Positions 6,920 to 19,081 are shown, counted from the first letter of the stretch. The stretch is 46,784 bases of DNA from Candidatus Hadarchaeota archaeon (GCA_040757795.1 JBFLWG010000001.1:1-46784), one strand, 5' to 3'. Notes: generated from the sequence alone by a model not told the origin. Numbers and translations: made by a program.

Positions 6920-8488
6920 ATGGCGGGAATGATGTCAAAAGCTGCCTGCTCTCTGGCCATCGCGGCGATTTTTATCCTGGCTGCCATGCCTATAGCCGGC
7001 GCTCAGGTGGCGCCTGTTGAAGATGAGATAACTTACGATTTCACGTCCCCGGAAAATTTGAAGCTCAGCATTCGTTCTTACTATTACGATGAGTTTCTGG
7101 TCCAAGATGTCTACTGGAGGGCCAGAATAGACCTGCTGAGATACATAGAAGAAATAGAGAACTCCAACAAGGACTCCTGGTGGAGAATCGATAACATAGA
7201 CATCAGGTTCGAAAACTTCATGTTTGACGCGTTCCCTCTGACACAGAACCTAGCGATAACAGGCCGCATCCGTCTTGACAACACCAGCGACAACATTCCC
7301 AAGCTATCGGTCAAAAAAATTGTTGAAGGAAGGAATGGGACAGTCACGCTAAAGTTCCCGGCCGGTTACCTCTCGCTTGGAGACCCCCAGCCGAATGAGA
7401 GGCGCAGAGAGAACAGCCGCGATGTCTTGACGTACGGCTTTGAAAACTACATTGAGCTTACCGCTTTTTTCAGTCGTGAAAATTCCGGTCTCGGCAAGGC
7501 ATATTTTGGACACAAGAGCGGCGGCGACATCTTGCTCCTGACCCCGTTTGTCGGGATTGCTGTCCTGACGGTTCTCAGGGTGGTTCTGGTGAAGAAGCGG
7601 GAGAAAAGTGGCGCCGCAAAATTCCTCAAGTCCAAATTCATCGGGCTGGTCGTGGCCCTGAACGGCCTTTTTCTGCTGGCCGTCGGGGCCGTCAGGCTTA
7701 GCGTCCTCAGCACCGTGCCATTTTTCTTCGGGGCGCTGGTCCTTCTGCTGGCCATCGACCCCGGAACGATTTTCAACTTGTTCCTGAAGGCAAGGGCGAA
7801 TCTGGACCCAAGCAAGCCTGCCCACCACTTCCTGGTTTTGACCTACCTGAACATTTTGTGGCCGCTGGTAGCCCTTCTCGCGATGGTTTTGGCCAACGTG
7901 GAGTTCCGGAGGGCTTTCAACCTTGTCATGTCGTGGCATGAGAATTGGTCCCTCATCCCCTTCCTGCTTGTGCTGCTCTCCCTTGCTTTTCTTGTGAAGG
8001 TTGGGTTCAGCTTTTCGCTCCACAGGAGAAAGCGCACGGCCAAGCTCAGGGAGAACGTCATTACCCTTGTGGGCAAACTGAGTCTGGCGAAGAAAAGAAA
8101 GCCGCGCAAGGACTTGCTCCTTGGATTTTCCGGAGCGCTGGTTCTTTTCGCCGCGTCTGCCGTCGCCGTCCTTGTCTTTGGCAGGGTTTCAGTCTACGGC
8201 GGAATCTTGAGTGGGCCCGGGGTGGTCGGCGCGGCGGTGATAGCAGTTTGCGGCGGCTTCGGGAGCGAATTTCTTTTCAGGTGTTTGCTACAGCCAAAGT
8301 TCGGCATTGCGCTGACATCCATCCTGTTCGGGGTCTTCTACAGCGTCTACGGTTTCTTTCCCAATGTCGTCTTGGCGGCGATGGCCGGCGTTCTGCTCGG
8401 CTGGATTTACAGCAAAAGACGGAACATCTGGGGGCCGGCGATTGCCCACTCCGCCTTCCTCTTCCTTTTCCTGATGTTACTAATTTGA
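6920..8488 (+). CDS. Polytopic membrane protein with a C-terminal CPBP (CAAX-type) intramembrane protease domain
   Basis: Signal/TM, then a ~200-aa extracytoplasmic domain and multiple TMs. C-terminal GSEFLFRCLLQP...FGVFYS...IAHSAFLF resembles the CPBP motifs. Start is uncertain among 6842 GTG, 6884 ATG and 6920 ATG. Confidence 0.65.
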   Translation: MAGMMSKAACSLAIAAIFILAAMPIAGAQVAPVEDEITYDFTSPENLKLSIRSYYYDEFLVQDVYWRARIDLLRYIEEIENSNKDSWWRIDNIDIRFENFMFDAFPLTQNLAITGRIRLDNTSDNIPKLSVKKIVEGRNGTVTLKFPAGYLSLGDPQPNERRRENSRDVLTYGFENYIELTAFFSRENSGLGKAYFGHKSGGDILLLTPFVGIAVLTVLRVVLVKKREKSGAAKFLKSKFIGLVVALNGLFLLAVGAVRLSVLSTVPFFFGALVLLLAIDPGTIFNLFLKARANLDPSKPAHHFLVLTYLNILWPLVALLAMVLANVEFRRAFNLVMSWHENWSLIPFLLVLLSLAFLVKVGFSFSLHRRKRTAKLRENVITLVGKLSLAKKRKPRKDLLLGFSGALVLFAASAVAVLVFGRVSVYGGILSGPGVVGAAVIAVCGGFGSEFLFRCLLQPKFGIALTSILFGVFYSVYGFFPNVVLAAMAGVLLGWIYSKRRNIWGPAIAHSAFLFLFLMLLI

Positions 8489-8541: not shown

Positions 8542-9726
8542 ATGAAAGTAGTTCTGGCATACTCCGGAGGTCTGGACACGTCTGTGGTGGTCCACCTTCT
8601 TCAGGACAAGTGGCATGCTGATGTCGTGACCGTCTCCGTGGACGTCGGGCAGAACCAGAAGGAGCTTAAGGAAATTGGCGAAAAAGCAGAAAAGCTCGGC
8701 GTGATAAAGCATGTCCATATCGACGCGAAAAAGGAATTTGTTGAGAACTACCTGTTCCCCAGCATAAAGGCCAACGGAGTATACGAGGGCTACCCGCTCT
8801 CCACTGCCTTGGCCCGGTACCCTATTGCGGCCGCGACCGTCAAGGTGGCAAAGAAGGTGAAGGCCGATGCCGTGGCCCACGGATGCACTGGGAAGGGCAA
8901 CGACCAGTTCAGGTTCGACACGACGATCTCAACGCTCGCCCCGAACATGAAGATAATCGCGCCCGTCAGGGAGCTGAACCTTGACAGAAAGTGGGAGATT
9001 GATTACGCCAAAAAGCACGGGATTCCAGTCCCTGTGGACCTGAGCAGGCCGTACAGCATCGACGAGAACATGTGGGGGCGCTCGATAGAGGGCGGTGTGC
9101 TGGAGAACCCAGAGCAGGCCCCGCCCGAAGACATTTATGAATGGACAAAGTCGCCCGAAAGCGCGCCGGCGAAGCCAAGGGTTGTGAAGATAGACTTCAA
9201 GAACGGCTTGCCTGTGGGTCTGGACGGGGCGAAGATGGAAGGAATGAAGCTCATCAGCAGGATGAATCACCTGGCCGGGGAGCACGGGGTCGGCAGGATA
9301 GACATCATGGAAGACAGGGTGCTCGGGCTGAAAGCCAGGGAGAACTACGAGGCGCCCGCCGCAACCGTCATCCTCCAGGCCCACAAGGCCATCGAGCAGC
9401 TTGTTCTGACGAAGCAGGAGCTGGCATTCAAGGCTGTCGTCGACCAGATGTGGGCCGACCTGGCATACAGCGGGCTGTGGTTCGACCCGTTGAGGGAGGA
9501 CTTGGACGCGTTCGTAAACTCCACCCAGAAGAGGGTGACGGGGAAGGTCGGCATCGAGCTCAACCGAGGCTTTTCCCGCGTGGTCATGAGGGGCTCCCCA
9601 TTCACCCTTTACGACGAGGAGCTGGTGTCGTTCGAGAAGTTCGGGTTCGACCAGAGGGACGCCGCCGGGATGATAAAGTTCCACGCCCTGCAGGGGAAGA
9701 TCCTGCGGAAGAGGAAGGGTGCCTGA
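8542..9726 (+). CDS. argG: Argininosuccinate synthase
   Basis: MKVVLAYSGGLDTSV (N-type ATP-PPase SGGLDTS), HGCTGKGNDQFRF. GGTGGT sits before the ATG. 394 aa. Confidence 0.95.
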   Translation: MKVVLAYSGGLDTSVVVHLLQDKWHADVVTVSVDVGQNQKELKEIGEKAEKLGVIKHVHIDAKKEFVENYLFPSIKANGVYEGYPLSTALARYPIAAATVKVAKKVKADAVAHGCTGKGNDQFRFDTTISTLAPNMKIIAPVRELNLDRKWEIDYAKKHGIPVPVDLSRPYSIDENMWGRSIEGGVLENPEQAPPEDIYEWTKSPESAPAKPRVVKIDFKNGLPVGLDGAKMEGMKLISRMNHLAGEHGVGRIDIMEDRVLGLKARENYEAPAATVILQAHKAIEQLVLTKQELAFKAVVDQMWADLAYSGLWFDPLREDLDAFVNSTQKRVTGKVGIELNRGFSRVVMRGSPFTLYDEELVSFEKFGFDQRDAAGMIKFHALQGKILRKRKGA

Positions 9727-12235: not shown

Positions 12236-13087
12236 TTATTCAGCCTCGGCCTTCCTCCTGAACAACCTATCCAAAAACTCTTTCAGACGCTGCTTGATGG
12301 TCCTTTCGCTTTCGGCCTCCGCCATGAGCTCGATTTCTTCTTTCGCTGGCTTCAGGAAGGAGATGAAAACCATCCCGGCCAGGAACCCCGTGATGTGGAC
12401 CCAGTAGCCGACGCCCTTGAGGACGACCACGCCCTGGGCGACCTCCATCCCCTCGAACCCCTTCAGCAGCTGGTAGGAAAGGTAGGCGAGGGAAAACGGC
12501 CAGATGGGCACCGGGATGAGGAAGAGGATGAAAAACACCACGAGGTATGTCGAGACTATTGTGGAGAGGGCCGCCCAGCCCGGCAGGAAGAGCGCGATTA
12601 GTGGCCAAATCAGGATTATCAGGTAGCCGAGGGGGCCCGTCTGCCAGGGGTAAGCCAAGTAGGCCGCGCCGATTATCCCTGAGATTGCGGCGGAGGCCCC
12701 GACCATCGGGACGTCGTAACCCGGGCTTATGGCGGTGGTGAGCAGCAGTGCCGTCACGTGGGTCGCGAAGTAAAGCAGGAGAAACCTGCCGAATCCTATT
12801 TTTCTCTCCAGGATGAAGCCGAACACCAGCAGCGATATCATGTTCCCGAGTAGATGGACCAAGTTCACGTGGATGAAGGCGGACGCCAGCACGGACGGGA
12901 TGGCCTCGCCGCGGGCCAGCGCCGCCGGCCTGAAGCCGTAGTCCTGGGCGGCCTGCGAGAGGAGCCCTCCGCCCTGGAGCAGCAGGAAGACTATCACGTT
13001 CGCCGCAGTTAGGATCAGGGTCGCCATGGGGATGGATCTGACCACCCGCAGTATCGACGTCAGCTGATGCTTAAGCCTGGCCTTCAT
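12236..13087 (-). CDS. Rhomboid family intramembrane serine protease (catalytic residues intact) with a charged C-terminal tail
   Basis: HVNLVHLLGNM (H..HxxxN), GASAAISGIIGA (Ser), WVHITGFLAG (His). ATG 13087 is preferred over TTG 13111. Confidence 0.85.
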   Translation of the reverse strand: MKARLKHQLTSILRVVRSIPMATLILTAANVIVFLLLQGGGLLSQAAQDYGFRPAALARGEAIPSVLASAFIHVNLVHLLGNMISLLVFGFILERKIGFGRFLLLYFATHVTALLLTTAISPGYDVPMVGASAAISGIIGAAYLAYPWQTGPLGYLIILIWPLIALFLPGWAALSTIVSTYLVVFFILFLIPVPIWPFSLAYLSYQLLKGFEGMEVAQGVVVLKGVGYWVHITGFLAGMVFISFLKPAKEEIELMAEAESERTIKQRLKEFLDRLFRRKAEAE

Positions 13088-13146
13088 CAAAACTACTTTG
13101 GGCCTCTGCAATTAACGGTTGCTTACGAGACTTTCGCGCCGGCCGC

Positions 13147-13831
13147 TCAGGTGAACCTGAAGCTCTGGACCATATTTTCAAACTCCATCTCAAGATTGCG
13201 GAAATCTCCCATTTTGTACACCTGGGTGGGGGCATATTGCGGATTTACGGAAGGATCCAAGTAAGGTGCCGTGAAAACCAAAGCGTGAAAGTACCCTCCT
13301 TTCGATGCAACTTTCGCCTTGACATTTCCAACGATGTAATCTGGATAAGGTTTAAAGCAAATGTTTGCGGCGGACTCCAAGGCGTTTTCTCCTCCAAGCT
13401 GGCCCAACTGCGTGGAAATGTCTCCCAAAGTGAAATGTGTGGCAGAATACACTTCCAATGTGGCGTTCTCTACTTGTAAAGCAAAACTCTCAGGCGACGC
13501 GTTTTCTTCTGCTCTTTGTGTAATCACAAACAAGTAACCTCCGTAGACGCTGTTTGGGTAATCTTTCTCAAACACCGTGAACAACGTTGAGCCGGGATAG
13601 TCCCTTTCATAACTTCCAGCCCTCCGCCACATCGAACGTGAAACCCCAAGTTGGTTTGGAGTAAACACTTGAAGCTGCTGAAATCTGCCGTACCGCCGGG
13701 ATTGTTAGAACCAGAACCACCACGATTATTCCTATGATTAACGCGAGCACAAGATACGGCTTGATATTGCGCTGCTTTAGGTCATAATATTCTGTGGAGA
13801 GAAGGTACTGATTCACGGATACTCCAAACAA
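13147..13831 (-). pseudogene. Single-pass membrane-anchored protein interrupted by a +1 frame change (two track ORFs, 13607..13831 and 13147..13668)
   Basis: The upstream ORF encodes an N-terminal TM anchor and ends ...TWGFTFDVAEGWKL-stop. The downstream frame continues ...ERDYPGSTLFTVFEKDY... immediately after. Skipping one nt near 13607-13609 joins the two into a single anchored globular protein. Confidence 0.5.
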
Positions 13832-13863
13832 TGTTTTGAAAACCGTGTAATTAGCTTAACTGA

Positions 13864-14610
13864 TTAATGGGGTGTTGGACCACTCTCCGCCGCCTTTTCC
13901 GGCCCCTTCGGCCTCAGCAGCAGATAAGCGGGAATTCCAACCAGCCCCAAAAGGCTGGCCAAGACCCCGCCCGCCAGAGCCTGAACGCTCATCCAGTAAA
14001 GCCCTATGCCGAGCTGGAGTACTATCCATGTGACGAGAAACGGGAGCAGCGGCACTTCCGTGTCTGGAGACAAAACAAATGTGACGACGGGCGGAGCAAA
14101 TGACACGGTCAGGTAAGTGACGACTGTTCCAAACGTTGCCACTGACCCAAAAAATGCAAAATATGCCATCGAGGGGAAGACCAGCAGAAGCGCGGGGAGC
14201 AGCGAAATCCCATCACTTTTGCAGGCGAGAAGGCAAGCCCAGGCAACACCTGACACTGCAGCGAGCGCCCCGAACGCAAGATAAGGCGCGCCCGGGATTA
14301 ACACTAGCGCAATTGCAGAAGCGGTCAGGCCCGAGATGATGTAGACTGCGAAAGACTTCACCGGGCCGACCTTCCGCTCGAGAAGCGCCGCTAGGACGAA
14401 AAGGTAAAGTGTGCTGAGCCCTTGCACCACAACCTCAAGAGTGCCGGGAAGTGGAAACATGACGACGATTATTAAGTTGGCTATTGCAAGCCCCAGAGCG
14501 GCGATTGGGAACCCCTTTATTCTGTTCAAGTCGACCACAACTAAACTTTTGGTAAGTGTATTTAGCTTTCTCTGAAGAGAACTTGTAACCCCCGAGCAAT
14601 TAACTTCCAA
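13864..14610 (-). CDS. Degenerate rhomboid paralog lacking catalytic residues (pseudoprotease candidate)
   Basis: Collinear with the adjacent rhomboid, including LLERKVGPVK and the tail LLLRPKGPEK. However GASAAISG is replaced by GALAAVSG, the HLSGN region by GLSTL, and WAHLSG by LASLLG. The start is uncertain (TTG at 14610, or GTG/TTG further in). Confidence 0.65.
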   Translation of the reverse strand: MEVNCSGVTSSLQRKLNTLTKSLVVVDLNRIKGFPIAALGLAIANLIIVVMFPLPGTLEVVVQGLSTLYLFVLAALLERKVGPVKSFAVYIISGLTASAIALVLIPGAPYLAFGALAAVSGVAWACLLACKSDGISLLPALLLVFPSMAYFAFFGSVATFGTVVTYLTVSFAPPVVTFVLSPDTEVPLLPFLVTWIVLQLGIGLYWMSVQALAGGVLASLLGLVGIPAYLLLRPKGPEKAAESGPTPH

Positions 14611-15349
14611 TCACCGGGATTTTGGCTTCCGCCTCCGGCACCTTTTTCGGACCCTTTGGCCTCAGCAGCAAGTACAGCAAGACGCCTGCTAGGAGTCCTG
14701 AAAGGTGCGCCCAGATTCCGCCCGCAAGGTATCCCAAGTTTGTGTAAAAGAGCCCCGCCCCCAGCTGGAACACCATCCATGTTATGAGGAAGGGAAGGAG
14801 AATCACTGTGGTGAAGGGGGCCATCACAAAGGTAAGAAGCGGTATTGCTGTGGAAAAGAAGAGGTAAATACCAATAGTCGCTGCTGTCGCTGGAAATGCA
14901 GCCGAAACCATCCACGTCAGACCCGGTAAGACCATCATTAGGGCGAACCCTAACGGGATTCTGTCGAACAGGCTGGAAAAAAAGCACGCTCCAGCGACGC
15001 CTGATATGGCGGCCGACGCCCCGTACATTACAACATTGGATCCCCACGCTAGGGAAAGGACGAACGCCACGGCGGCGATGTGTGACACAAAGTAGATGAT
15101 AAGAAATTTTACCGGACCTATTTTTCGCTCGAGAAGGTAACCCATTACAAAAAGAGCCAACATGTTGCCCGAAAGATGCCAAAAGTCGGCGTGCATGAAA
15201 AAGGAGGTCAGCAAAGTGTGCAGGTTTTGGCCCCGGGCAACATCGTATGGAGTGAGCCCATAATCATTAATCGCCTGGTCAAGAGGCCCGGCTACACTAA
15301 ATGCTGTAAAAATCAAAACGTTAACGCCAATCAATGCCAGTGTCGCCAC
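14600..15349 (-). CDS. Rhomboid family intramembrane serine protease (catalytic residues intact)
   Basis: FMHADFWHLSGNM, YGASAAISGVAGA, GIWAHLSGLLAG. The GTG start lies 3 nt after the upstream stop. Confidence 0.85.
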   Translation of the reverse strand: MATLALIGVNVLIFTAFSVAGPLDQAINDYGLTPYDVARGQNLHTLLTSFFMHADFWHLSGNMLALFVMGYLLERKIGPVKFLIIYFVSHIAAVAFVLSLAWGSNVVMYGASAAISGVAGACFFSSLFDRIPLGFALMMVLPGLTWMVSAAFPATAATIGIYLFFSTAIPLLTFVMAPFTTVILLPFLITWMVFQLGAGLFYTNLGYLAGGIWAHLSGLLAGVLLYLLLRPKGPKKVPEAEAKIPVIGS

Positions 15350-15604: not shown

Positions 15605-15695
15605 TTACTCACAATTATCCTGTCTCTTGGCGAGTATTATAATTCCCCTCAAAAACAACATTTAAGAAAGCTGCGCCCATTTGGAATTTGAGCAG

Positions 15696-16928
15696 ATGAT
15701 AACCGTCCTGGAAGGTGGAATAACTGAAGTCCCCGGGTTCAAGGCCGCCGGAGTCAGAGCTGGCATAAAGAAGCGCGGCCTAGACATCATGCTTCTGGTC
15801 TCCGAAGACGGCCCCGTCACGGCCGCGGGAGCATTCACCACCAACCGTGTTCAGGGCGCCCCTGTCACCGTCACCAAAGAGCACCTGAAGAAGGGAAAGC
15901 TCGGGGCGATAGTGGCCAACTCCGGGATATCCAACGCATACACAGGAAAGAGGGGCCTCAGGGATGCCTACAGGATGGCGCAGGTCGCCGCTCGGCTACT
16001 CAAGATTAGGGCCGCAAACGTCGGCGTCGCCTCGACCGGCCTGATCGGCGCCTACATGCCGATGAAAAGGGTGGAGGCGGGAATCAAGGCGGCGGCAAAC
16101 GAGCTTTCAAACTCGCGGGAGGCCAGCCTCAACGCCGTGAAGGCGATAATGACGACCGATACAATTCCAAAAGAAGTAGCGCTCCGGGTGGACCTTGATG
16201 ACGGAACCACCGCGACAATTGCTGGTATAGCGAAAGGCGCCGGCATGATTTCCCCAAAAATGAAGACTGCGACAATGCTAGCCTTTGTTGTAACAGACGT
16301 CTCGATAACCTCCGACGCCATGAAGGCTATGCTGCAGAGGGCGATCGACAAGAGCTTCAACATGGTCAACATCGACAACGACACGAGCACGAGCGATATG
16401 GTGTTGGTGATAGCCAACGGGCGGGCGAAGAACCGCCGCATAACACTAGACCGCATGGACAGGCAGTTCCAGGCCGGCTTCGAACACGCCCTCACCGAAC
16501 TTGCCTGGATGATAGCCGGCGACGGGGAGGGGGCAACGCGCCTGATTGAGGTGCAGGTCTCTGGGGCCCGCAACGTCGGGGAGGCTAGGATGGCAGCGAG
16601 GGCTGTGGCAGGCTCAAACCTCGTCAAGTCCGCGGTGTTCGGCAAGGACCCCAACTGGGGAAGGGTGGTGGCGGCCCTCGGCTACTCAGGGGCAGTCTTC
16701 GACTCCAAGGACCTCAGCCTGGAGCTTGAGGGCGAGCGGGGTAGCGTGGAGCTGGTGCACAGGGGGAAGCCGGCCCCGAAGAGGGCGCTGGCGAGGGGCA
16801 GAGACATCATGAAGAGCAAGGAGATAGAAATCATAGTCAATCTGGGCGCCGGGAAGGCCTCGGCCACCGCCTGGGGCTGCGACCTTACCTATGACTATGT
16901 CAGGATAAATTCCCGTTATACTACGTAG
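15696..16928 (+). CDS. argJ: Bifunctional ornithine acetyltransferase / glutamate N-acetyltransferase
   Basis: Autoproteolytic site KTATMLAFVVTD, DGEGATRLIEV, WGCDLTYDYVRINSRYTT at the C-terminus. ATG 15696 is preferred over TTG 15681. Confidence 0.92.
   Translation: MITVLEGGITEVPGFKAAGVRAGIKKRGLDIMLLVSEDGPVTAAGAFTTNRVQGAPVTVTKEHLKKGKLGAIVANSGISNAYTGKRGLRDAYRMAQVAARLLKIRAANVGVASTGLIGAYMPMKRVEAGIKAAANELSNSREASLNAVKAIMTTDTIPKEVALRVDLDDGTTATIAGIAKGAGMISPKMKTATMLAFVVTDVSITSDAMKAMLQRAIDKSFNMVNIDNDTSTSDMVLVIANGRAKNRRITLDRMDRQFQAGFEHALTELAWMIAGDGEGATRLIEVQVSGARNVGEARMAARAVAGSNLVKSAVFGKDPNWGRVVAALGYSGAVFDSKDLSLELEGERGSVELVHRGKPAPKRALARGRDIMKSKEIEIIVNLGAGKASATAWGCDLTYDYVRINSRYTT
16899..16913 (+). repeat. 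Left copy of the exact 15-bp direct repeat GTCAGGATAAATTCC (inside argJ codons V-R-I-N-S)
   Basis: Identical 15-mer at 18121-18135, read directly from the sequence. Confidence 0.9.
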
Positions 16929-17036
16929 TTGTCACCCCAAACCCTTGTGCTGGCGAAATCTAGCAAACTATCATATGGTTGAATTAACGGGCACCGCAAT
17001 ATGGCATGAAAAGGTTAACAATACAAAAACGACACA

Positions 17037-17046
17037 TTTAAATATA
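17037..17046 (+). promoter_or_regulatory. TATA box TTTAAATATA for fic, flanked by the inverted repeat AACAATAC (17017-17024) / GTATTGTT (17048-17055)
   Basis: The box lies about 20-30 nt upstream of candidate GTG starts at 17065 and 17074, which is leaderless-type geometry. Confidence 0.4.
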
Positions 17047-17073
17047 CGTATTGTTAATTGTATTGTGATACTT

Positions 17074-18045
17074 GTGGTCTCAATACACAGAAAAAAAATC
17101 AAAGGGCACTCGTACCCCTATTTGGTGAAATCAGTGCGCCTGCCGAATGGTAAAATAGTAACAATAAACAAAATGTTGGACAAAAAAGAAAAAGTGATGA
17201 GTCCAGAAGCGTTGGAAAGAATTTACAGGAATTATTTCGTAGAAAAAGAGAAAGAGTTGTACAAAAAATTCGCCGAGTCAAATCTCAAGAAATCATATAT
17301 TTTTGCATCCGGCGAAATAGCAAAATTAGAGGAAATCAGAGTATCGTATAAACATTTGATCAACAGGCTCTCAAAAAATCAACTCAAAGATATCTTCGAC
17401 AGGTTCACCGTTAATTTCACATACAACTCCAACGCGATAGAAGGCAACTCTCTCACTTTGAAAGACGTTGCGATAGTTATGTTTGAAAATGGCATTGTAA
17501 AAAGCCGGGATTTACGCGAGATATACGAAACTAGGAATTCCAGGAAGGTTGTTGACTCAATATTGCACAGAAAATACAAAATTACACACGAAGACACCAT
17601 CAAGATGCACAAAATGCTGATGAGGGACATTGACGAAAGAACTGGATATAAACAGCTCCCTAACGTACTGCTCAGTTTTGACCGCGAGATACAGACAACA
17701 AGGCCCGAAGACGTGAAAAAAGAAATGGGCAATTTAATAAAATGGTATGAAAAAAACAGTGCCAAAATGCATCCCCTCGAACTCGCCACAATCTTTCACG
17801 GCCGGTTTGAAAAAATACACCCGTTTGAAGACGGCAATGGAAGGGTTGGGCGGTTTTTGATAAACGTTATTCTTGTCAATAATGGCTACCCACCGTTAAT
17901 CGTGAGAAAAACGGTTAGAGAATCATATATCTCCGCTCTTCAGGCATTTGATGGGGGGTATCAAGATAAATTGAAACGATTCATGCTTGAAAAATTCAAA
18001 GATACGTACGCTAAATTTTTTGAAGTATACGTTAAATACATGTAA
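17074..18045 (+). CDS. fic: Fic domain protein (AMPylase family) with an internal inhibitory motif
   Basis: Fic motif HPFEDGNGRVGR and inhibitory-helix motif SNAIEGN ((S/T)xxxE(G/N)) upstream. The N-terminus VSIHRKKIKGHSYPYLVKS is typical of this Fic subgroup. Start is uncertain among 16945, 17065 and 17074. Confidence 0.88.
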   Translation: MVSIHRKKIKGHSYPYLVKSVRLPNGKIVTINKMLDKKEKVMSPEALERIYRNYFVEKEKELYKKFAESNLKKSYIFASGEIAKLEEIRVSYKHLINRLSKNQLKDIFDRFTVNFTYNSNAIEGNSLTLKDVAIVMFENGIVKSRDLREIYETRNSRKVVDSILHRKYKITHEDTIKMHKMLMRDIDERTGYKQLPNVLLSFDREIQTTRPEDVKKEMGNLIKWYEKNSAKMHPLELATIFHGRFEKIHPFEDGNGRVGRFLINVILVNNGYPPLIVRKTVRESYISALQAFDGGYQDKLKRFMLEKFKDTYAKFFEVYVKYM

Positions 18046-18114
18046 TCACACCAACCCTGCCAGCAGAGTTGCTTAGGTGACAAAAAGCTGGGAGACATAC
18101 TCACAGTACTGCGG

Positions 18115-18150
18115 GAGTTTGTCAGGATAAATTCCAAATACACGACCTGA
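18115..18150 (+). pseudogene. Relic of an argJ 3' end (encodes EFVRINSKYTT-stop), carrying the right copy of the 15-bp repeat at 18121-18135
   Basis: The intact argJ end is DYVRINSRYTT-stop. The same peptide is encoded here with different codons after the core (aaa tac acg acc tga versus cgt tat act acg tag). The relic lies 46 nt upstream of the argB ATG. Confidence 0.6.
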
Positions 18151-18196
18151 GTGTCAAATTTAATAACATGCAACGCGTGGAGTCTTTTGTGGTGGA

Positions 18197-19081
18197 ATGC
18201 AGGAACGCGCAAAGGTGATGCTGGAGGCGCTCCCCTTCATCAGGGAGTTCCACGGTAAGGTCATAGTCATCAAGATAGGTGGGAGCATAATGGGAGAAGA
18301 GAAGCTTCTTGACTCCCTCCTCCAGGACGTTGTCCTCCTCAACCTGTTCGGGATGAAGACGGTGCTGGTCCACGGCGGCGGGCCCGAGATAAGCGAGGAG
18401 ATGAAGAAGATGGGAGTGAAGCCGAAGTTCATCGAGGGGCTGCGCGTCACCGACGAGCAGACGATGGAGATCCTGCACGAGCAGCTGGCCGGGAAGATAA
18501 ACAAGCAGGTGGTGCTTGGGATAAATCACCACGGCGGGAAGGCATTCGGGATTTCTGGCATGGATGGGAGCCTCATCCGCGCGCGCAAGCTCCTTTACAA
18601 GACCACCACCAGCAAGGGGAAGGAGGTCGAGATAGACCTCGGGCTTGTCGGTGAGGTGGAGAGGATAGACCCGAGCATCATCGGCAACCTGGTCAAGGCC
18701 GGCTGCATCCCTGTGATCGCTCCCATAGGGATAGACTCTGAAGGGCACAGCCTCAACATAAACGCCGACACTGTCGCCGCGGAGATTGCCGTGGCCATGC
18801 ACGCGAAGAAGCTTGTGCTGATCACCGACGTGCTGGGGGTCATGCGCGACCCCAACGATGAAAAAACCCTGATCTCGGCCATGACGACGGGGGAGGCGCA
18901 AAAGCTCATCCAAGAAGGAGTGATCAAGAAGGGGATGATCCCAAAGATAGAGGCCTGCCTCAGGGCGGTGCATAGTGGCGTTGACCGCGCCCACATCCTG
19001 AAGGGCACGGCCCCGCACGTACTGCTGCTGGAGCTCCTGACAGAGAGCGGCGTCGGCACAATGATTGAGCGGGGAAAGTAG
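18197..19081 (+). CDS. argB: Acetylglutamate kinase
   Basis: VIVIKIGGSIM, LVHGGGPEI, INADTVAAEIA, GMIPKIEA. Confidence 0.93.
   Translation: MQERAKVMLEALPFIREFHGKVIVIKIGGSIMGEEKLLDSLLQDVVLLNLFGMKTVLVHGGGPEISEEMKKMGVKPKFIEGLRVTDEQTMEILHEQLAGKINKQVVLGINHHGGKAFGISGMDGSLIRARKLLYKTTTSKGKEVEIDLGLVGEVERIDPSIIGNLVKAGCIPVIAPIGIDSEGHSLNINADTVAAEIAVAMHAKKLVLITDVLGVMRDPNDEKTLISAMTTGEAQKLIQEGVIKKGMIPKIEACLRAVHSGVDRAHILKGTAPHVLLLELLTESGVGTMIERGK

Follow-up and report, generated by a model that had tools for sequence, protein, structure and literature searches.

What brought a gene of the Fic family in between argJ and argB in the arginine cluster of an archaeon? The locus lies on a 46,784-nt stretch of DNA from a Candidatus Hadarchaeota archaeon (GCA_040757795.1 JBFLWG010000001.1:1-46784), which we analysed at its full length and refer to as the window. 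A first-pass annotation of this sequence had proposed that fic came in by site-specific integration of DNA that supplied a replacement 3′ end for argJ. Comparison with relatives confirmed the core of this proposal: the window holds a precise 1,222-bp insertion between duplicated copies of a 15-bp core, and the last codons of argJ were exchanged for codons carried by the insert. As to how the DNA entered, site-specific recombination by an enzyme supplied in trans is the most likely route and, in our judgement, a probable one.

A 1,222-bp insertion at the 3′ end of argJ

The core sequence, GTCAGGATAAATTCC, occurs exactly twice in the window, at 16899–16913 and 18121–18135, and both copies stand in frame within argJ-type ends, reading ...VRINS[R/K]YTT-stop, as had been annotated. 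We refer to the two copies as the cores of attL and attR, the left and right attachment (att) sites. The attL core comprises argJ codons V-R-I-N-S and would be the region of crossover; the attR core is an exact repeat of it. Similarity between the two places extends beyond the core to 42 nt at 74% identity (16893–16934 against 18115–18156). A repeated 15-mer is not rare in itself, as we estimate that about one such pair is expected by chance across 46.8 kb. What makes this one significant is where it lies, the frame in which it is read and the comparison with empty sites.

Relatives were found by an ArgJ scan of species-representative genomes, to which metagenomic loci were added. The closest, Hadarchaeota MAG157 (locus L001), has an ArgJ 94% identical to that of the window and is syntenic and collinear with it at roughly 86% nucleotide identity. 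The alignment runs from window position 15650 to 16913, breaks off, and restarts at 18121, with a single core at L001 7219–7233 common to both blocks. There, argJ ends in GACTAC-GTCAGGATAAATTCC-AAATACACGACCTGA and is followed after 46 nt by argB, constituting an empty site. Two metagenomic relatives, L083 and L084, with ArgJ identities of 84% and 82%, provide two more: argJ is followed directly by argB, and the gene ends in KYTT-TGA. Neither the core sequence itself nor the argJ–argB spacer shared by the window and L001 is conserved in these two loci.

To the right of the insert, window 18121–18210 matches L001 7219–7308 at 90 of 90 positions. This perfect run, the second-longest in the 11 kb common to the two sequences, begins precisely at the downstream core and spans an argJ end (18136–18150; AAA TAC ACG ACC TGA, K-Y-T-T-stop), the 46-nt spacer (18151–18196, 100% identical to L001) and the start of argB (18197–19081; TIGR00761, 5.3e-76), whose start region is identical through 18210. 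The annotation had taken the 46 nt between this downstream end and argB for the spacing of an original argJ–argB junction, and L001 has the same distance. Neither the end nor the spacer shows any decay relative to L001. On the other side, the argJ sequence that abuts the core has diverged to an ordinary extent, with 26–29 of 30 positions identical per segment compared. The polarity of the event is fixed by the empty sites, which carry the downstream-type end. The downstream "relic", now non-coding in the window, is thus the native argJ end, the same that is functional in L001, and the end now in use, CGTTATACTACGTAG (16914–16928; CGT TAT ACT ACG TAG, R-Y-T-T-stop), arrived with the insert; the empty sites have AAATACACGACCTGA in its place.

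The target gene was kept intact by this element-borne sequence. argJ, encoding ornithine acetyltransferase, occupies 15696–16928 on the plus strand, as do all features described here up to and including argB. NCBI places the start at 15696, and the longest open reading frame (ORF) begins at 15681. Its product is full length against both profiles (Pfam ArgJ, 9e-137 over 377/377; TIGR00120, 405/405), the protein translated from 15696 is an exact match to MEW6592081.1 in the protein collection, and the RYTT-stop is a terminus typical of the lineage.

Composition and direction of the event

The insert was described as AT-rich in the first-pass annotation, and a composition check bore this out. GC content is 0.33–0.43 over 17000–18100 and 0.55–0.65 in the flanks. 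At 0.386, the insert is the minimum of all 1.2-kb stretches in the window, 4.3 standard deviations below the window mean of 0.55. By gene, fic has 38% GC and the arg genes 56–60%, and the GC content at third codon positions (GC3) is 0.46 in fic, compared with 0.74–0.82 in argJ, argB, argD and argF. The composition of the insert is foreign.

These data also bear on the reverse history, in which fic was ancestral here and was removed from the "empty" relatives when the stretch between the core copies was precisely deleted. Recombination of 15-bp direct repeats would restore the exact L001 sequence, so an empty site alone gives no direction. However, all three relatives are empty, L083 and L084 do not have a conserved core, fic retains its low GC and GC3 among the arg genes, and the displaced end and spacer are undecayed with respect to L001. 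A single insertion is more parsimonious than three precise losses, and the unameliorated composition of fic agrees with it; we consider ancestral presence very improbable.

Could the junctions be an artefact of assembly or binning that joined unrelated DNA? The contig derives from a metagenome-assembled genome (MAG) and the insert has been seen once only. Yet both junctions fall in the same 15-bp word, a length below that of the k-mers commonly used in assembly, collinearity with L001 holds in either flank, and the argJ frame is restored with a lineage-typical end, unlike what a chimera would give. The probability of an artefact is, to our minds, very small.

Origin of the incoming argJ end

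Taken together, the core and the insert-derived end are identical at 27 of 29 positions to the native argJ ends of the Hadarchaeales loci L008, L090 and L130, and at 25 of 27 to loci of Ca. Hadarchaeum yellowstonense. Among 156 ArgJ loci examined, the VRINS[KR]YTT terminus is confined to Hadarchaeales. Because of these matches and this distribution, the incoming end is, as judged from sequence comparison, a genuine Hadarchaeal-type argJ terminus. The same comparison led us to reject a tandem duplication in situ followed by divergence: the downstream copy is the functional L001 end, and the upstream end departs from it at 9 of 21 nt, its matches being in other lineages.

The insert comprises three parts: a fic module (~17012–18045), a left arm (16914–17011) and a right arm (18046–18120), with neither arm derived from the module. 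Nucleotide homology to the nearest fic locus, L081, covers neither arm: it sets in only at about 17012 and goes no further than the fic stop codon. The left arm has a GC content of about 0.44; past the argJ stop it is non-coding (16929–17011), and it has no match elsewhere in 164 loci. The non-coding right arm has a GC content of 0.51, terminates in CGGGAGTTT (18112–18120), and shows no significant similarity, in DNA or protein, to argJ upstream of the core among 16 Hadarchaeales argJ ends. A longer, decayed argJ relic in the right arm was considered and rejected, as no consistent signal emerged; only L084 gave a nominally high DNA score (2/300 shuffles), without support at the protein level. 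The residues E-F that precede the downstream core, which had been read as part of the argJ relic, belong to the insert. The asymmetry of the arms, with the left argJ-like and the right not, fits a recombination site in which selection would act only on the side that is translated.

A rebuilt joined site and the absence of a recombinase

Joining the two ends of the insert rebuilds an attP-like site, CGGGAGTTT-GTCAGGAT-AAATTCCCG, with a 9-nt inverted repeat (8/9 match) around an 8-bp spacer that lies wholly inside the core. Such a 9-8-9 arrangement would suit the core site of a tyrosine recombinase. The best inverted repeats in attB (the empty site), attL and attR match at 4, 6 and 7 of 9 positions, respectively, with other arms and spacers, and none is comparable to that of the joined site. 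The arms of the insert also share an 8-bp inverted pair, TTGTCACC (16929–16936) and GGTGACAA (18076–18083), whose members lie 15 and 37 nt, respectively, from the nearer end of the insert.

No recombinase or integrase matched by Pfam, and no transposase, casposase or polymerase, turned up in the insert or among the window's 39 larger ORFs that were scanned, so that the annotated lack of a recombinase holds. Searches for a tRNA gene, an Rfam family, terminal inverted repeats of the insert or any long inverted repeat, and a second ORF in the insert that might encode a separate antitoxin were likewise negative.

A transposon- or casposon-like insertion, in which the 15-bp repeat would be a target-site duplication from staggered cleavage, can be weighed against these results. 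The length of the repeat is inside the casposon range, where duplications measure 14–15 bp and targets include the 3′ ends of protein-coding genes such as ef-2. On the other hand, the insert is without terminal inverted repeats, its sole arm repeat being the subterminal 8-bp pair, and without casposase, polymerase or transposase; moreover, a target-site duplication leaves unexplained an in-frame R-Y-T-T-stop that matches other Hadarchaeales argJ ends. We reject this reading as highly improbable.

The sequence around the joined site also speaks to an integron gene cassette inserted at a secondary site. Archaeal integrons and integrase-less attC clusters occur in Hadarchaeota MAGs (PMC9668308), and a single gene of cassette size with no adjacent recombinase would suit such an origin. 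However, on reading 18046–18135 we found no RYYYAAC/GTTRRRY boxes and no attC; the joined site folds weakly (z = -1.72) into a 9-bp stem, not a hairpin of attC size, and Rfam, as noted, gave no match. The cassette furthermore has its own TATA promoter, and its flanking repeat is 15 bp long rather than a GTT crossover point. An integron cassette is therefore rejected, with hardly any probability left to it.

Proposed route of entry

In the route that we favour, a circular or circularised foreign DNA of 1,222 bp would recombine once with the chromosome inside the 15-bp sequence that it has in common with the last argJ codons, in a Campbell-type integration. The crossover would duplicate the core; argJ would gain four codons and a stop from the incoming DNA and retain its conserved ...VRINS[K/R]YTT end; and the native end would be displaced 1.2 kb downstream, still 46 nt before argB. 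Catalysis would probably be by a tyrosine-type recombinase encoded elsewhere, on a helper element or by the host. What stands in the window today is an integrase-less, att-flanked islet. It would be non-autonomous or else left over from a larger element, as an archaeal counterpart of bacterial elements discussed below. Single-crossover integration of a circle is preferred because it accounts for both the duplicated core and the exchanged gene end, which neither a double crossover nor staggered-cut transposition produces.

Several observations weigh against this route. The inverted repeat of the joined site is moderately significant, at about 1% (54 of 5,000 flank shuffles reach it), and the 8-bp arm pair, with some 0.09 expected by chance by our estimate, is weak evidence. 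The window contains no recombinase, and neither a joined (attP) form nor a full-length parent element at argJ was found in about 25 Hadarchaeales loci or in viral contigs. The Fic protein occurs on one contig only, so that the cassette is a singleton in the protein collection; the 90% cluster of ArgJ holds the window and L001 only, and exact-protein look-ups give no further members of the population. The right end of the insert resembles that of another argJ–argB insert, in L008 (described below), at a score reached in 48 of 500 shuffles, which is not significant alone. Finally, 15 bp of identity could in principle serve host homologous recombination.

This last point is the basis of a second route without a dedicated recombinase. 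A fragment of another Hadarchaeon, with fic just downstream of argJ, might have been end-joined to a circle and recombined through the 15 bp by the host's homologous or microhomology pathways; in a variant, the whole attL-fic-attR arrangement formed elsewhere and was imported by double crossover. The incoming end is near-identical to other Hadarchaeales argJ ends (27/29 and 25/27), as expected from a plain chromosomal piece, no recombinase is present, and the 90-nt perfect run to the right of the insert, together with a block of 93–99% identity to L001 at 12900–13900, points to recent exchange of DNA between lineages. Nevertheless, only a donor that carried two cores beforehand could pass them on by double crossover, which still leaves a single-crossover circle to be invoked somewhere in the history; for recombination of the RadA type, a 15-bp stretch is very short; the inverted repeat that the joined site forms across both sides is not expected from random circularisation; an argJ followed natively by fic is found in no genome among the approximately 25 Hadarchaeales loci; and no imported tract is seen left of the core, where argJ divergence from L001 is ordinary. 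Overall, we regard this host-driven route, the principal rival, as unlikely.

Beyond recombination by a trans-supplied enzyme as such lies a more specific reading, that the insert is a working minimal element: a recombination site of some 170 nt plus a self-regulated fic, moved in trans by a recombinase that recognises the 9-8-9 mimic of the argJ end, with sister mini-elements carrying other cargo, such as the insert of L008 and L130 described below, at the argJ|argB junction in other Hadarchaeales. We hold this to be doubtful; if true, archaea would have, apart from integrons, a class of integrative cassettes with a single gene and no integrase. The islet may be a minimal mobilisable cassette or the decayed stump of a larger element, the two possibilities originally annotated.

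The fic gene and its product

The sole gene of the insert, fic, starts with GTG and encodes 323 residues (17074–18045; Pfam Fic, 1.3e-20). From the GTG at 17074 onward, the N-terminal sequence can be aligned with those of 38 homologues, and the gene is probably leaderless. Both annotated Fic motifs are present. The catalytic motif HPFEDGNGRVGR (17818–17853, residues 249–260) fits HxFx(D/E)GNGRxxR, and its specified positions H, F, D, G, N, G, R and R are invariant across 39 homologues. The inhibitory motif SNAIEGN (17428–17448, residues 119–125), in which E123 and G124 are invariant, precedes the Fic core in the same polypeptide. Sequence matches in the PDB are the Clostridioides difficile Fic (CdFic, 4x2e) and FICD (4u04), and an AlphaFold model with a pLDDT (predicted local distance difference test) of 90.8 has its best fold matches in FICD, BT_2513 and CdFic. 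The protein shares with these class II enzymes its catalytic motif, the placement of SNAIEGN, and sequence and fold similarity; drawing on established knowledge of the family, it is a predicted auto-inhibited class II (FICD/HYPE-like) AMP-transferase/de-AMPylase. Unlike them, it has an extra N-terminal sheet: residues 1–34 are predicted with high confidence to form three strands that have no counterpart in the solved Fic structures retrieved. A class I toxin–antitoxin module of the FicT/FicA kind was rejected, as the insert has no second ORF and the inhibitory motif is on the Fic chain itself.

PADLOC profiles PDC-S04 (6.8e-43) and SoFic (1.6e-28) match the protein, and the arrangement of a lone gene, here in a small foreign islet, is like that of these systems; PDC-S04 is only a candidate system, and it is the Fic core that is matched. 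On the basis of these profiles, the protein might possibly act in defence against viruses.

The closest relative, P0002, is 81% identical in amino acids and about 80% in nucleotides, promoter included, and is encoded on the 112-kb contig L081. Judged from its Mre11, the host of L081 is another Hadarchaeon. Homology between the two loci extends from the left palindrome arm (~17012) to the fic stop codon, and in L081 the gene sits between an AAA+ ATPase gene with Rad17/RFC-type Pfam matches and tRNA-His, away from argJ. That its closest relative is at a different locus, and that the closest relatives of the window are without fic, suggests that the fic module moves. Within L081 8001–9300, fic lies 156 nt upstream of tRNA-His (9129–9201), the 5′ part of which is repeated at 9262–9288 with 74% identity. 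The gene there has a GC content of 0.47–0.49 in a region of about 0.60 that includes several low-GC patches. Neither flanking repeats around the L081 fic nor an empty site for that locus were found; the region is a variable island. More remote Fic homologues, at 55–70% identity, occur mostly in DPANN archaea among ordinary genes. In viral contigs, plasmids and phages we found no relatives of the cassette, and phage proteins match Fic at less than 35% identity; nor did the core with the insert-derived argJ end match any viral contig.

A palindrome overlaps the promoter of fic (17014–17058). Its arms, GTTAACAATAC (17014–17024) and GTATTGTTAAT (17048–17058), enclose a 23-nt spacer that contains the gene's own TATA box, TTTAAATAT (17037–17045). 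The annotation had noted a TATA box bracketed by an inverted repeat; this is correct, but the arms measure 11 nt rather than 8. The same 11+23+11 layout is kept upstream of seven other Fic homologues with 60–81% amino acid identity (L081 7941–7985, L163, L164, L082, L167, L168 and L169), the eight bearers being Hadarchaeota and DPANN-like genomes. Across these sequences 97.7% of cells are paired, compensatory changes occur at 5 of the 11 pairs, none of 500 shuffles reaches the observed covariation, and slid controls fall far below. The palindrome is probably an operator for a dimeric regulator, and that regulator is possibly Fic itself, acting via its N-terminal sheet. Alternatively, the palindrome might form a cruciform.

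Other inserts at the argJ–argB junction and neighbouring genes

In L008 (5388–6232), an insert of 845 nt separates argJ from argB. It has a GC content of 0.44, against 0.50–0.57 around it, and carries a different gene, on the opposite strand: a 166-aa ORF without a family match. L130 has the same insert, and L090 is a short contig of the same lineage. The argJ end of L008, CGCTATACTACGTAGTT, is identical to the insert-derived end of the window at 16 of 17 positions. No flanking repeat was found, and there is no close relative with an empty site. We do not assign this insert to the same element family, as the left-end match is in coding sequence, the right-end score is the one reached by chance as given above, and no repeat flanks it; it is a lead only. 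In a third Hadarchaeon, L005 (6593–7736), about 1.1 kb between argJ and argB contains three short consecutive ORFs, possibly pieces of one broken gene, one of which has a weak BNR-repeat match (E 0.0018). Its argJ core is identical to the 15-bp core of the window, with no second copy.

Where argB is not adjacent to argJ in Hadarchaeales, the genes downstream of argJ are housekeeping genes with no mobile element. Two such Hadarchaeum loci, L002 and L004 (both at ~7300–7330), have the motif TGATGAYTTCATTATGCGAGG in common some 70–80 nt past the argJ stop, in a spacer that is otherwise unalignable.

The cluster in the window is arranged as argG-argH-argC, three rhomboid genes on the opposite strand, argJ-[fic]-argB-argD-argF, and a carbamate-kinase-like gene. 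fic was said to split the arginine operon, which is not established: fic has the same orientation as the arg genes, and argB keeps its native 46-nt spacer, where a TATA-like AAATTTAATAA occurs and a GGTGG immediately precedes the gene. As far as sequence can tell, transcription of argB may start at a promoter of its own, come from argJ or, now, depend on the promoter of fic.

Between the two halves of the cluster, at 12236–15349 on the minus strand, lie the three tandem genes for rhomboid-family membrane proteases and a small ORF. The third rhomboid gene is much more diverged from L001 (75% nucleotide identity) than its neighbours. The block at 12900–13900 is 93–99% identical to L001, compared with 75–90% elsewhere in the shared region; it holds a minus-strand ORF (13147–13668, 173 aa) without a Pfam or PHROG family, and local GC is about 0.49. 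This suggests that the two lineages exchanged DNA here recently or that the stretch is unusually strongly constrained.

Relation to known integrative elements

Replacement of a gene end by an integrating element has precedents. Phage 21 and e14 integrate in the 3′ end of icd, an essential metabolic gene of Escherichia coli, and bring a diverged copy of the gene end, so that a functional protein is still made. Unlike the fic islet, these are full or defective prophages with their own integrase and much longer homology.

The first-pass annotation treated a protein-coding target as unusual. This was overstated, since archaeal examples are on record: of 68 integrated elements in Thaumarchaeota, 14 lie in the 3′-distal part of protein-coding genes, the att sites have a median of 17 bp, and in the case of NitEve-E2 the target's stop codon is replaced by the element (PMC6563490). 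The fic islet resembles these elements in its short att repeats of 15 bp, its position at the 3′ end of a protein gene, the replacement of an end that includes the stop, and an empty site in a related genome. Unlike them, it has 1.2 kb, one gene and no integrase; the thaumarchaeal elements are multigene, all carry an integrase, which is part of their definition, and their cryptic class spans 2.6–98 kb, the smallest being 2.6 kb (PMC6563490). The sequence with which NitEve-E2 replaces its target's end is non-homologous, whereas that of the fic islet reproduces the original peptide and resembles the argJ ends of related lineages.

A parallel for the missing integrase is found in bacteria, where cis-mobilizable elements (CIMEs) keep attL and attR and have lost their integration genes, as in those derived from streptococcal integrative and conjugative elements and integrative and mobilizable elements (PMC5704250). 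Like a CIME, the fic islet is flanked by attL and attR, sits at the 3′ end of its target and lacks genes for integration or transfer, and movement would be expected only with the recombinase of a related element. CIMEs are bacterial and tied to conjugative elements, whereas the host here is archaeal, and neither a parent or helper element nor any integrase-bearing element at the argJ end was found at the ~25 Hadarchaeales loci.

Implications

Integration with replacement of the gene end is known in archaea; the fic islet is unusually small and recombinase-less, and it joins thaumarchaeal-type and CIME features in Hadarchaeota. It provides a case, resolved to the base, in which a single foreign gene entered an archaeal biosynthetic cluster and did it no damage, with the last argJ codons repaired and the argB spacer intact. 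Integration at the 3′ ends of protein-coding genes is thereby extended to Hadarchaeota, a phylum known only from MAGs, and the locus suggests that, in these genomes, recombination acts in trans or integrated elements decay rapidly. The cargo is a member of a Fic family with a wide distribution in DPANN archaea and representatives in at least two Hadarchaeota genomes, and its covarying palindrome offers a handle on how archaea regulate an auto-inhibited AMP-transferase and on its possible role in defence.

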